54,010 nucleotides of DNA from Candidatus Saccharimonadota bacterium (lineage in GTDB: Bacteria > Patescibacteriota > Saccharimonadia > Saccharimonadales > Saccharimonadaceae): assembly GCA_037135295.1 (NCBI GenBank), contig JBAXKN010000001.1, positions 1 through 54,010 on the forward strand, written 5' to 3'. The notes beneath the pieces are model-generated. The model saw only the letters and a program-made list of their open reading frames with translations. It searched no databases and was not told the DNA's origin. The translations under genes and the position numbers were made by a program. The number at the start of each line of letters is the position of its first letter. The first letter of the stretch is position 1. Below, in pieces: positions 39,655 to 41,618 of this stretch.

Positions 39655-40200
39655 ATGGAATCAATACGTAAATTAGAAAACGTAATTGGAGGATGGTTAA
39701 AACCACTTCCACATTTGCCGGATACTTGGCGAAAATGGTTATCGGAAAATATCTGGTGGTTAACATTAATAGGGGTAATTTTAGAGGTTATTGCAATATT
39801 CATGCTAGTTGCTGCAATATTTGCTGCAATGGCAGTTGTTAGTACTACAGATGCATTTCTAGGTGCGTATTACAGAGCATCAGTCACAACATATTCTGGA
39901 ATGTGGTATTTTTCATCGATTGTATCAATAATTTTTATTATCGCAACAACAGCTATCACAGCAATGGCTATTAAACCTTTGCAGGGTATGAAGAAAAAAG
40001 GTTGGGACTTGTTATTTATAGTATTTCTATTAGGTGTTGCTTCGTCAGTTGTTAGTGCTGCCCTAAGTCTTACTTATAATGCGTATGGTCTAATACCAAA
40101 CATTGCCTCGGCCATCATTAGTGCTGTTATAGGTGCATATTTCTTATTTGAAATAAGATCACATTTTAACGCTGCTAAAGTAGTCAAAAAAGAAAAATAA
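39655..40200 (+). CDS. hypothetical 4-TM membrane protein
   Basis: 181-aa ORF with AAGGGGGA upstream. Confidence 0.6.
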   Translation: MESIRKLENVIGGWLKPLPHLPDTWRKWLSENIWWLTLIGVILEVIAIFMLVAAIFAAMAVVSTTDAFLGAYYRASVTTYSGMWYFSSIVSIIFIIATTAITAMAIKPLQGMKKKGWDLLFIVFLLGVASSVVSAALSLTYNAYGLIPNIASAIISAVIGAYFLFEIRSHFNAAKVVKKEK

Positions 40201-40250
40201 AATCAATACTTGAGCCGTCACCCTGATTAGTGTACAATTTGTATTGTTAA

Positions 40251-40395
40251 TGGGGTGTCGCCAAGTGGTAAGGTGAGAATTGCCAGACGGCAATTCGCAA
40301 GGCCGGAAGTGCGACGGCACTGAGGCGGGCTCGCGAAATTTATCCCCAGATAAATATTTGTGAGACGGGTTTTGGTCCTGGCACCAAAGCTGTAG
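40251..40395 (+). pseudogene. tRNA-Gln-derived 5' fragment (acceptor 5' strand, D arm, 92-nt insertion, degenerate UUG anticodon arm)
   Basis: 40251-40273 is 23/23 identical to 40434-40456. 40366-40382 matches the anticodon arm of the intact gene at 14/17 positions, including the loop TTTTGGT. The insertion starts with the hairpin GAATTGCC-AGAC-GGCAATTC. TACAAT lies 12 nt upstream, the same spacing as at the intact gene. Confidence 0.65.
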
Positions 40396-40415
40396 AAAAT
40401 TACAGCACTTTAAGA

Positions 40416-40421
40416 TATAAT
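40416..40421 (+). promoter_or_regulatory. -10 element (TATAAT) of tRNA-Gln
   Basis: Perfect TATAAT 12 nt upstream of tRNA nucleotide 1. Confidence 0.45.
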
Positions 40422-40433
40422 TGTTCATTGTAA

Positions 40434-40508
40434 TGGGGTGTCGCCAAGTGGTAAGGCACCGGCTTTTGGTGCCGGCATTCGGGGGTTCGAATCCCTCCAC
40501 CCCAGCCA
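40434..40508 (+). tRNA. tRNA-Gln(UUG)
   Basis: Acceptor TGGGGTG/CACCCCA (U1-A72), D arm GCC/GGC, anticodon arm CCGGC/TTTTGGT/GCCGG, T arm GGGGG/TTCGAAT/CCCTC, discriminator G, encoded CCA. 75 nt. Confidence 0.93.
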
Positions 40509-40511
40509 TAG

Positions 40512-40546
40512 AAAAAAGTCCTAGGTTTTTATCCTAGGACTTTTTC
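40512..40546 (+). terminator. intrinsic terminator of tRNA-Gln
   Basis: AAAAAGTCCTAGG/CCTAGGACTTTTT stem plus a T-run. Confidence 0.8.
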
Positions 40547-40582
40547 TATAACTGAGCTGTAGTGATTCGATGCCCCGAGTGA

Positions 40583-40703
40583 GCATTCGGGGGCGAAAAC
40601 TGCCAAACGGCAGTTTGAGAGAAACCTTTCAGATTATTAGCTGTGCTAATAGTATGTAAGTTTCGGGGTCGCGGAACGTGACCGAATCCCTCCACCCCAG
40701 CCA
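40583..40703 (+). pseudogene. tRNA-Gln-derived 3' fragment with a 90-nt insertion in the T loop
   Basis: GCATTCGGGGG (40583-40593) equals the variable loop plus T-stem 5' strand. GAATCCCTCCACCCCAGCCA (40684-40703) is 20/20 identical to 40489-40508. The insertion starts with the hairpin AAACTGCC-AAAC-GGCAGTTT. Confidence 0.65.
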
Positions 40704-40705
40704 AT

Positions 40706-40735
40706 AAAAACGCAGACCTTTTGGTCTGCATTTTT
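40706..40735 (+). terminator. intrinsic terminator after fragment C
   Basis: GCAGACC/GGTCTGC stem, TTTT loop, and a downstream T-run. Confidence 0.7.
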
Positions 40736-40744
40736 ATTGCCGTG

Positions 40745-40885
40745 GTCGGGATCCGAATCATCGGTTTTGTGAAACAAAACATCGCGGGGTTCGGCGAAGC
40801 GATTGAAGTGAAAAAGTGTTTACATTTTTTCGTGAATGAACGGAGAAGCGACACAAAGTGAAGCGCTATACCTCCACCCCAGTCA
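40745..40885 (+). pseudogene. second, more degenerate tRNA-Gln 3' fragment
   Basis: A degenerate T-arm-like stretch TCGGGATCCGAATC is followed by about 110 nt of hairpin-rich sequence. It ends with CCTCCACCCCAG (12/12 match) then TCA instead of CCA. Confidence 0.5.
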
Positions 40886-40888
40886 ATC

Positions 40889-40917
40889 ATAAGCACTCTG
40901 TATGAAGTGCTTATTTT
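40889..40917 (+). terminator. intrinsic terminator after fragment D
   Basis: 9-bp stem ATAAGCACT/AGTGCTTAT followed by TTTT. Confidence 0.7.
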
Positions 40918-40979
40918 ATTGCATTTAATGCTAATGTTTGTTTAAATTAGATTAAGTTTAATTTTTAATAGGATAAATC

Positions 40980-41618
40980 ATGAAAAAACAAATATACAAG
41001 TCAGGTTTTGCCCCAATTATTATAATAGTAGTCATAGTCGGTATGGTCGTAGTTGGAGTTTCAGGGTATTTATTTTATAAAAATTTTGTACAGAAAAAGT
41101 CTAATAACTCAATAGCCGGAACTAGCGCAAAACAAAAGTCAGATAATAATGTATACTCAGATAATAATTTAAGTTTTGAATATCCTAAAACAGGGTGGTC
41201 AACCACCACTAATACAAGAGATGATCCTTCTGGCTATGGTTTTAAGTACCACTCCGTATATTTACGTAGTGACGATTTCAAGGAGAGTGGTGATGGTAAT
41301 CCAGGTTCTTCAGCGAATATACTAGAGGGCACACAAATTTCTATTGTAAAGAATGGGCCAAACCCAGCTGGGGATAATGGTCCGAGAATCGATACAGAGG
41401 TTAAGTCTGCTGCCGACAGAGACTACTATACTGACGTTAACACTATAATGGTTGATGGATATAAAGCCTATAGTTACATCGATCAGTTTGGGTCACCTGT
41501 TACTAGATTTGCAAAAACTAATTACGAATATGGGATAGCAATTTTTCGTTCAGACAAAAAATACGACATGTATATGGCAGTCTATGATTTAATCAGGTCT
41601 ACCCTGAAGGTAAAATAG
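40980..41618 (+). CDS. hypothetical membrane-anchored/secreted protein
   Basis: 212-aa ORF with an N-terminal TM helix (FAPIIIIVVIVGMVVVGVSGYLF). Confidence 0.6.
   Translation: MKKQIYKSGFAPIIIIVVIVGMVVVGVSGYLFYKNFVQKKSNNSIAGTSAKQKSDNNVYSDNNLSFEYPKTGWSTTTNTRDDPSGYGFKYHSVYLRSDDFKESGDGNPGSSANILEGTQISIVKNGPNPAGDNGPRIDTEVKSAADRDYYTDVNTIMVDGYKAYSYIDQFGSPVTRFAKTNYEYGIAIFRSDKKYDMYMAVYDLIRSTLKVK

Follow-up and report, generated by a model that had tools for sequence, protein, structure and literature searches.

The window analysed here is a stretch of 54,010 nucleotides (nt) from the genome of a Candidatus Saccharimonadota bacterium (assembly GCA_037135295.1, contig JBAXKN010000001.1, forward strand); the whole genome comprises 796 kb in 78 contigs and is 97.5% complete. 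Between positions 40200 and 40950, which hold no plausible protein-coding gene, a tRNA-Gln gene is flanked by fragments of further copies that are interrupted by structured noncoding inserts. The initial annotation, made from the sequence alone, had described four elements here, designated A to D, and all four were recovered with ARAGORN, Rfam, BLAST and direct reading of the sequence. ARAGORN and the Rfam covariance scan, both proposed as checks, called a single tRNA-Gln(UUG) at 40434 to 40508. The features of the locus, in order, are as follows.

40210..40238, + strand: ancestral tRNA-Gln promoter, TTGAGC-17-TACAAT, now driving fragment A (promoter scan)
40251..40273, + strand: A, 5′ fragment of tRNA-Gln (nt 1-23), probably the original 5′ end of the ancestral gene (23/23 identity to B)
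40274..40366, + strand: A-type structured insert, 93 nt, G+C-rich, replacing 2 nt of the D-stem 3′ strand (model match, common fold)
40367..40411, + strand: A copy, degenerate anticodon arm running into a fold-back, TTTGGT..ACCAAA, and then a hairpin at 40388-40405 (sequence reading, repeats D3/D5)
40393..40421, + strand: secondary promoter of the intact gene, TAGAAA-17-TATAAT (promoter scan, 10/12 matches)
40434..40508, + strand: B, intact tRNA-Gln(UUG), the only functional copy (ARAGORN; Rfam tRNA, 62.9 bits)
40513..40545, + strand: terminator hairpin of B, centre of a long palindrome (inverted repeats I7, 13 bp, 100%, and I1)
40546..40582, + strand: X′ of module C, the 3′ third of the tRNA in inverted and degenerate form (I1; 41-nt arms, 78% complementary)
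40583..40593, + strand: U, direct copy of the variable loop and T-stem 5′ strand, GCATTCGGGGG (sequence reading)
40594..40682, + strand: C-type structured insert, 89 nt, in place of T54-T55, forming a four-way junction with the T-stem as closing helix (R1 model, 112.4 bits)
40683..40703, + strand: tail of module C, tRNA nt 56-76 including CCA (21/21 identical to B)
40704..40737, + strand: terminator of module C (terminator scan, stem 40712-40729; repeat I3)
40738..40780, + strand: module D, degenerate inverted tRNA 3′ copy (40738-40759) and small conserved hairpin (40763-40780) (sequence reading)
40784..40793, + strand: module D, T-stem 5′ strand and TTCG, T-loop nt 54-57 (sequence reading)
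40794..40870, + strand: D-type structured insert, 77 nt, after T-loop nt 57, second family (BLAST copies)
40871..40885, + strand: decayed tail of module D, CCTCCACCCCAGTCA, probably the original 3′ end of the ancestral gene (repeat D1)
40889..40920, + strand: ancestral tRNA-Gln terminator, ATAAGCAC...GTGCTTAT (terminator scan; homologous in the relatives G079, locus L141, and G016, locus L021)

Fragment A begins 12 nt after its TACAAT hexamer (40233-40238), and the same 12-nt spacing separates TATAAT (40416-40421) from B. The first description of A was accurate as to this spacing and to the 23 identical nucleotides; its insert, however, measures 93 rather than 92 nt, and the copy runs past GGCA into the fold-back instead of ending there. 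The degenerate anticodon arm itself occupies 40367-40383, and an inverted anticodon-arm copy follows A-type modules in relatives too (L086). The duplication behind A reaches into the −10 element and leader (repeat D2; 41 nt, 83%), and the secondary promoter duplicates the ancestral −10 and leader in diverged form. For element C, the restart at GCATTCGGGGG, the T-loop insert, the CCA end and the terminator all stand, with the lengths of insert and tail corrected from 90 and 20 nt to 89 and 21. Element D is, as first described, a second and more degenerate 3′ fragment with a terminator of its own; it comprises GGGGTTCG at 40786-40793, the 77-nt insert and a slightly decayed acceptor end. Absent from the initial annotation were two inverted copies of the 3′ third of the tRNA, one at 40546-40582 and the other at 40738-40759. 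An Rfam E-value scan of 40150-41000 returned tRNA only, with no group I or II intron signature and no known self-cleaving ribozyme, tmRNA or Y RNA-like match, apart from miRNA matches that are spurious and result from the long hairpin of the tRNA/X′ palindrome. Rfam at its gathering thresholds, and scans of six related loci, likewise gave tRNAs only.

BLAST of the region against all contigs of the source genome found the inserts again inside fragments of the adjacent cognate tRNA at the genes for Ile, Leu, Pro, His, Arg(GCG), Arg(UCG), Ser, Gly(UCC) and Gln(CUG). The inserts are thus not unique sequences, as the initial annotation had supposed they would be if the locus were plain attachment-site (att) debris. 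A covariance model, R1, built from five C-type copies, detects six copies in the source genome; of 61 relatives, 45 are positive as well, with 1-22 copies each and about 250 in all. R1-positive genomes make up 32 of the 36 from the genus, and 13 of the 25 genera counted in the order are positive; among 150 further genomes sampled across the phylum the single match came from the same order. The window's C insert matches this model with an E-value of about 1e-25. As had been proposed, the A and C inserts are related: each begins with an 8-bp hairpin, and the A insert shares the 5′ junction and P2 hairpin of the C-type model (E 2e-4). The A-type variant differs from the C-type in its central arm, and its six copies, in four genomes, fold alike. 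The D-type inserts form a second family, with copies in the source genome at C8:2388-2438, at C16:4834-4894, on C64 and at the end of C6 (C numbers denote its contigs), and with BLAST matches in 22 of the 36 genus relatives (up to 8 per genome). By eye, two hairpin variants of this family differ by compensating changes.

Comparison by eye of the A and C junctions with the cores of the hammerhead, hepatitis delta virus (HDV) and hairpin ribozymes gave no fit. Full-text literature searches found no published description of the insert, and a paper on rRNA insertions in the candidate phyla radiation (CPR) makes no mention of tRNA. The inserts are multi-copy families that match no catalogued RNA or mobile element and belong to a system that is probably specific to this Saccharimonadales-like order.

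The five C-type copies behind R1 adopt a common fold, a four-way junction with the T-stem as its closing helix, in which 17 pairs have compensatory changes. In the alignment of 108 copies from which covariation statistics were taken, 94.9% of cells are paired, compared with 74.2% in shuffled controls and at most 48% with slid partners, and 37 of 39 pairs show double-sided changes. In the A-type fold, 17 of 30 pairs have compensatory changes. The nucleotides of the junction hardly vary. Because G·U pairs outnumber A·C mismatches by about 10:1 (162 versus 16), and one G·U pair is kept in 93 of 106 copies, the fold forms on the tRNA-sense strand, as RNA or as single-stranded DNA. Conserved insert columns are retained at 93.5% next to decayed tails and at 95.5% next to perfect tails, among copies that still match the model. 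The inserts therefore stay intact where the tRNA flanks have decayed, which argues that they are not decaying leftovers.

The positions of the inserts are exact. In the T-loop, C- and A-type inserts lie after G53 and before nt 56 and replace T54-T55; in the D-arm, two nucleotides of the 3′ stem strand are replaced (Gln, Ser, Pro); and at tRNA-Arg(GCG) an A-type insert is nested inside a C-type insert, after GG, with 2 bases replaced. D-type inserts follow TTCG and replace three bases. The insert occupies the place of TT in the fresh repeats inspected, and model boundaries agree in every aligned T-loop copy. By position, 62 of the 108 copies follow an intact cognate tRNA at a distance of 62-94 nt, about a dozen precede one by 34-40 nt, and a single copy is found inside an otherwise complete tRNA-Lys(UUU) (L124), the intact twin of which is 3.5 kb away.

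Downstream modules share a common order: tRNA, terminator, X′ (inverted nt 44-76), a short loop, nt 44-53, the insert, nt 56-76 and a second terminator. X′ is significant in 50 of the 62 downstream modules, where it scores above every shuffle. In upstream modules a short inverted copy separates the intact gene from the interrupted one, and at tRNA-Leu this inverted copy, CTTGAACC, doubles as the −35 box. The freshest modules show direct repeats of 56-68 nt that run from exactly nt 56 through the terminator. While X′ drifts, 35 of 61 tails are identical to the tRNA at 20 or more of 21 positions; a third of tails are decayed. A hairpin-led insert family that targets tRNA genes, one of the three readings first offered, draws strong support from this recurrence, which extends from the source genome to 45 of 61 relatives, and from the precise boundaries and helix covariation of the inserts.

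Two further settings of the inserts were observed. At C63:454-668 (L004) a full-length pseudo-tRNA-Pro upstream of the intact tRNA-Pro is interrupted twice: a hairpin of 64 nt that represents a third type follows nt 23, and the T-loop contains a C-type insert. In relatives, C-type inserts also occupy the loops of GG-closed hairpins that are not tRNAs (L100, L101, L106, L024:2475-2572 and L131); these hosts are G+C-rich and noncoding, some have a duplicated intact copy adjoining, and Rfam gives no match for them.

Comparison of sister loci, also suggested at the outset, was made possible by the gene upstream of the locus (39655-40200), which anchors orthologous positions in 50 genus relatives. 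The closest relative has only 55% protein identity in the flanking gene. In all of the relatives inspected (numbered with G, their loci with L), the promoter block TTAGTGTACAAT directly follows the upstream orthologue; in about 12 relatives this conserved block serves the intact tRNA. What follows it differs. G080, G076 and G008 pass from the promoter to an intact tRNA-Gln with no module; G061 has an A-type module before the gene and nothing after; G029 has a C-type module only, downstream; G005 and G062 have a D-type module after the gene; G002 has an A-type module before and a C-type module after tRNA-Gln; and G004 and G079 have a 5′ fragment with other hairpin inserts before the gene and a C-type module after it. 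The A-type insert occupies the same tRNA-Gln position in G002 and G061 as here, and the D-type module of G062 (L162) has a hairpin, CTTTTGTGAAACAAAAG, homologous to that of module D.

Since orthologous loci are found empty, A-only and C-only, A and C are separate events, and the earlier view that they form complementary halves of one second copy is not supported. That their ends match at the variable loop is most plausibly a coincidence. The outermost pieces would be the two original gene ends, because the ancestral promoter drives A and the tail of D meets the ancestral terminator; in G079 and G016, the type of terminator with which this tail is contiguous comes after the outermost tRNA-Gln tail. 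B would then be the innermost and youngest composite, an order of events that we infer from the arrangement of the sequence. D is more decayed than C, as expected if D is older. In G079 the ancestral-type terminator is followed by the orthologue of the open reading frame (ORF) at 40980-41618, and tRNA-Gln is a synteny breakpoint.

The terminator of B and X′ are nearly identical in G026 and at the tRNA-Gln(CUG) locus of G028. At the G026 locus (L147) the terminator, X′ and nt 44-55 are nearly identical to 40509-40593 of the window, and the insert and tail are missing; this locus represents either a deletion derivative or a pre-insertion state.

Large serine recombinases are encoded in 42 of the 61 relatives, compared with 2 of 14 control genomes, with up to 7 per genome of approximately 0.8 Mb. 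At 15 or more of 30 loci the recombinase gene and an intact tRNA gene on the opposite strand converge, or overlap, at the 3′ end of the tRNA (L205, L207, L212, L216, L220, L221, L223 and L225-L228 are loci of this kind). Three relatives link these islands to the modules. In G041, two perfect tandem units of 4101 bp, each consisting of tail, serine recombinase, two ORFs, module and tail, are bounded by the 21-nt tail. In G018 (L111:880-1942), two insert-plus-tail repeats that are 96% identical bracket a 1.15-kb two-gene cargo after tRNA-Pro(GGG); its ORFs encode 131 and 219 amino acids, and a sub-threshold HEPN/AbiU2 match in the larger (E 0.0013) hints at defence genes. In G014, tRNA-Gly(GCC) carries an 8.4-kb island, directly after which stands the module, hairpin included, that the window has at 55-197; beyond the tail of this module lie 318 nt of a decayed integrase 3′ end. 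From these cases it follows that decoy tails serve as attachment sites and that modules can travel with islands.

The start of the window carries a module of this sort. Positions 1-230 hold a tRNA-Gly(GCC) cut by the edge, a terminator, an inverted T-arm copy, GTCGAGAG, a 33-nt G+C hairpin and the last 22 tRNA nucleotides; G042 has the same layout with a different hairpin.

We also considered whether a module might be no more than the right end of a serine-integrase island, and rejected this. Both complete islands that could be delimited stop short of the module, in the order ...GCACCA, terminator, module, and for this reason the insert is not simply an island arm. Seven other islands have no tail repeat within 20 kb. 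To the left of nt 56 lie the covarying fold, a T-stem strand and an inverted copy, not structureless element DNA. A tRNA 3′ repeat bounding an integrase element, the mark of an att remnant, is seen in the relatives G041 and G014, and neither the window nor the source genome contains one. The suggestion that the fragments are scars of serial integration at the T-loop thus holds in part: the locus is a stack of separate events, and its kind of tail is used by serine-integrase islands, but the inserts are not decaying remnants.

The absence of an integrase from the window, noted at the outset, extends to serine recombinases in the whole source genome, in which the one tyrosine recombinase lies on another contig. 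Searches of this genome for TnpB (PF07282), reverse transcriptase (PF00078), splicing endonuclease (PF01974) and RtcB (PF01139) found none, so that the inserts fit neither a TnpB/IscB guide RNA nor a retroelement such as a group II intron, retron or DGR. Two genes for Y1/RAYT-like transposases of 202-206 amino acids are present (C19:4609-5226, − strand, and C61:1348-1947, + strand), each flanked on both sides by palindromes of its own, TTTAGAAGGACGGACCTTCTAAA and TTTTCCAAGGTTSRACCTTGGAAA, that are unrelated to the inserts. Relatives have up to 6 Y1 paralogues. Among 60 relatives, Y1 presence is weakly associated with insert presence (odds ratio 4.3, p 0.04; kin are not independent), and 18 insert-bearing genomes are without Y1, including those with 22, 13, 11 and 10 copies.

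The source genome also has one small GIY-YIG gene, in addition to a second, weaker match that may be UvrC. The small gene lies at C24:6116-6612 (L012, L043) in the order tRNA-Gln(CUG), hairpin, promoter, 93-amino-acid GIY-YIG ORF, last ~25 nt of a C-type insert and tRNA-Gln(UUG)-like tail, such that the ORF separates the P2-like 5′ part of an insert from its P4 3′ part. The same cassette occurs at the tRNA-Gln(UUG) locus of G078 (L140). The three inserts of the window and nearly all others contain no ORF. In relatives, 15 of 30 loci with small GIY-YIG genes (85-115 amino acids) show a distinct arrangement of promoter, tRNA nt 1-30, ORF and intact cognate tRNA. In these duplications the D-loop is replaced by a G+C hairpin and the D-stem GGAG appears to act as the ribosome-binding site; the tRNAs concerned are Asn, Gln, Lys, Trp, Arg and Ala (L046, L049, L053, L055, L059, L062, L067, L072). 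GIY-YIG proteins were rejected as the general mobiliser: their genes stand in their own type of tRNA duplication and within two inserts, but are missing from the genomes richest in copies.

These observations are best accommodated, in our view with a probability of about 0.55, by a lineage-specific system that repeatedly strikes a functional tRNA gene at fixed loop positions, leaves a structured insert on the displaced end and regenerates the gene, with the resulting decoys feeding integrase islands. The locus would be a stack of three independent tRNA-decoy modules around a single working tRNA-Gln, each module being a truncated gene copy with a conserved noncoding element, folded in a strand-specific manner, in place of two or three loop nucleotides; A and C would carry variants of one four-way-junction family and D a member of a second. 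Each event would strike the functional gene after G53 of the T-loop or within the 3′ strand of the D-stem. The displaced original end would stay joined to the insert, an intact gene would be regenerated on the inner side, and an inverted partial tRNA copy would come to lie between gene and decoy. Repetition of such events would produce the observed nesting, with the ancestral promoter and 5′ end at A, the 3′ end and terminator at D, and B as the youngest part. The spare tRNA 3′ ends would be usable by large serine-integrase islands, and modules and islands would accrete side by side.

We infer that the insert may be the mobile or recombination-active part of the module. More tentatively, and at well below even odds, the four-way junction could be the active agent itself, an RNA or folded single-stranded DNA that directs its own placement into the loops of tRNA genes and of a few other structured-RNA genes. 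If so, it would be a gene-less, structure-encoded mobile element of an undescribed kind, the decoy ends of which are landing pads for integrase islands.

Several points weigh against repeated strikes with regeneration of the gene. X′ is only ~75% complementary even where the direct repeats are identical, which fits neither simple fresh copying nor decay. No enzyme can be assigned, given the lack of serine recombinase, reverse transcriptase, TnpB, splicing endonuclease and RtcB in the source genome, and the genomes richest in copies have neither a Y1 transposase nor a GIY-YIG gene. The comparison of insert intactness is biased by its restriction to copies that still match the model. The relatives offer no strain-level pair of empty and filled sites, and the exact unit inserted is deduced indirectly.

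If the locus were instead plain att debris, the fragments would be attR and attL remnants of serial islands that entered tRNA-Gln and were later deleted, and the inserts would be conserved arm sequences. The recombinases of the relatives and their position beside tRNA 3′ ends, the module within the duplicated 4.1-kb integrase unit of G041, the cargo-bracketing repeats of G018 and the synteny breakpoint at tRNA-Gln all favour this explanation, to which we give a real but minor chance. A double-stranded site, however, needs neither 37 covarying pairs nor a tenfold excess of G·U over A·C. Nor does the explanation suit inserts in D-arms, within another insert and in non-tRNA hairpins, the six copies in a source genome without serine recombinase, the complete islands that stop before the module, or upstream modules that duplicate the 5′ part of the tRNA, which integration at the 3′ end cannot do. 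A somewhat less likely candidate is an RNA useful to the host. Here the modules would be transcribed, either by read-through or, like A, from a promoter of their own; the four-way junction would function as a ribozyme, an aptamer or a domain that binds protein, and antisense X′ and the sense CCA tail would act on tRNA maturation or on tRNA-targeting toxins or phage, or would recruit tRNA enzymes. The conserved junction, covarying helices, retained G·U pair and tRNA-sense fold are what such an RNA would show, as are the good promoter of A, the terminators right after CCA in C and D, tails that stay identical while X′ drifts, and inserts kept beside decayed flanks. Yet a terminator stands between the tRNA and most modules with no consistent promoter before the modules, a third of tails are decayed, and a range of 0-22 copies among close relatives, with orthologous loci often empty, is unlike a housekeeping RNA.

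Movement in trans by Y1 (HUH) transposases, with the inserts as REPIN- or PATE-like nonautonomous elements in a hairpin-recognising transposition of single-stranded DNA, is improbable. It draws on the two Y1/RAYT-like genes, the strand-specific fold, the sub-terminal hairpins at both ends, the exact ends without short target duplication and the weak association of presence; it is opposed by the unrelated palindromes of the Y1 genes themselves, by the 18 insert-bearing genomes, including the richest, that lack Y1, and by the behaviour of IS200/IS605-type insertion, which deletes no two bases and makes no partial gene duplications, as well as by the absence of TnpB. A split or intron-bearing tRNA, in which A and C are halves or precursors spliced into a second tRNA-Gln, is close to refuted. 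Mobile tRNA introns and split tRNAs exist in Archaea, A ends and C begins at the variable loop, and the interrupted tRNA-Lys(UUU) of one relative is full length apart from its T-loop insert. But every interrupted copy examined has an intact cognate nearby or elsewhere; 107 of 108 copies are truncated, and removal of the insert in silico restores a tRNA in 1 of 108; removal would leave a 5-nt T-loop without T54 and Psi55; neither a splicing endonuclease, nor RtcB, nor a group I or II signature was found; and A and C occur separately in relatives.

Saccharibacteria have genomes among the smallest of bacteria, yet up to 22 copies of a folded element of ~90 bases are kept per genome, each time at an exact position in a spare piece of a tRNA gene. 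They would be either gene-less mobile elements of a new kind, with their information in the fold, or a new type of tRNA-linked RNA that serves the host or acts in defence. The modules explain assembly breaks at tRNA loci, odd fragments reported by tRNA finders and the pile-up of islands. Many contigs end in or beside tRNA genes or modules (C6 31000-31216, the end of C16, C37, C39, C67 and the start of the window), and only 26 tRNAs were found in the nearly complete source genome, which suggests that the assembly breaks at these repeats and that some tRNA genes are hidden as a result. Some members of the group can be cultured, so the question is open to direct testing.

Integrative elements leave displaced tRNA fragments at att sites in tRNA and tmRNA genes, and att-flanked, integrase-less elements that are mobilised in cis can accrete in tandem. 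The tRNA-Gln locus resembles these in its stacked partial 3′ copies after an intact gene, in the 21-nt tail that bounds integrase units in relatives and in its gene-less minimal units. It differs in the covarying 80-90-nt fold within the displaced T-loop and the inverted tRNA copy, in modules that duplicate the 5′ end with a new promoter, in D-arm, nested and non-tRNA copies, and in having no island integrase here. Noncanonical tRNA introns of Archaea (Thermoproteales, Nanoarchaeum) place related short sequences at several non-anticodon positions of many tRNA genes. The inserts likewise occur, as related sequences, in the D-arm and T-arm of many tRNA genes, implying movement between genes; they differ from archaeal introns in forming truncated decoys beside an intact gene, in lacking a bulge-helix-bulge, in the absence of splicing endonuclease and RtcB, in their large four-way junction and in their bacterial host.

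With REPINs/RAYT and derivatives of IS200/IS605 the inserts share small size, lack of coding capacity, multiple copies, compensated hairpins, a strand-specific fold and the presence of Y1 genes in the genome. Unlike them, they target the loops of RNA genes rather than intergenic tetranucleotides, two bases are lost, partial gene duplications arise, the Y1 palindromes differ and Y1 presence does not track copy number. Integron attC and the attP of CTX phage are strand-specific folded recombination sites in which shape is conserved over sequence and which can bracket promoterless cassettes, much as the two insert-plus-tail repeats of G018 bracket a two-gene cargo; in contrast to those sites, the inserts have a highly conserved junction sequence, are embedded in a tRNA copy and are found with no integron integrase and, in the window, no cassette array. 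Homing elements may bring a replacement piece of the target gene with them, as does a mobile GIY-YIG ORF in fungal mitochondrial atp6. Phage T4 SegB, in a tRNA cluster, offers a homing-endonuclease comparison (PMC2330249). Most modules, unlike homing elements, have no ORF, and GIY-YIG is missing from the genomes richest in copies, whereas the likeness lies in a target gene that stays functional through a replacement end, in a displaced end that becomes a pseudo-fragment, and in the small GIY-YIG genes found in tRNA duplications.

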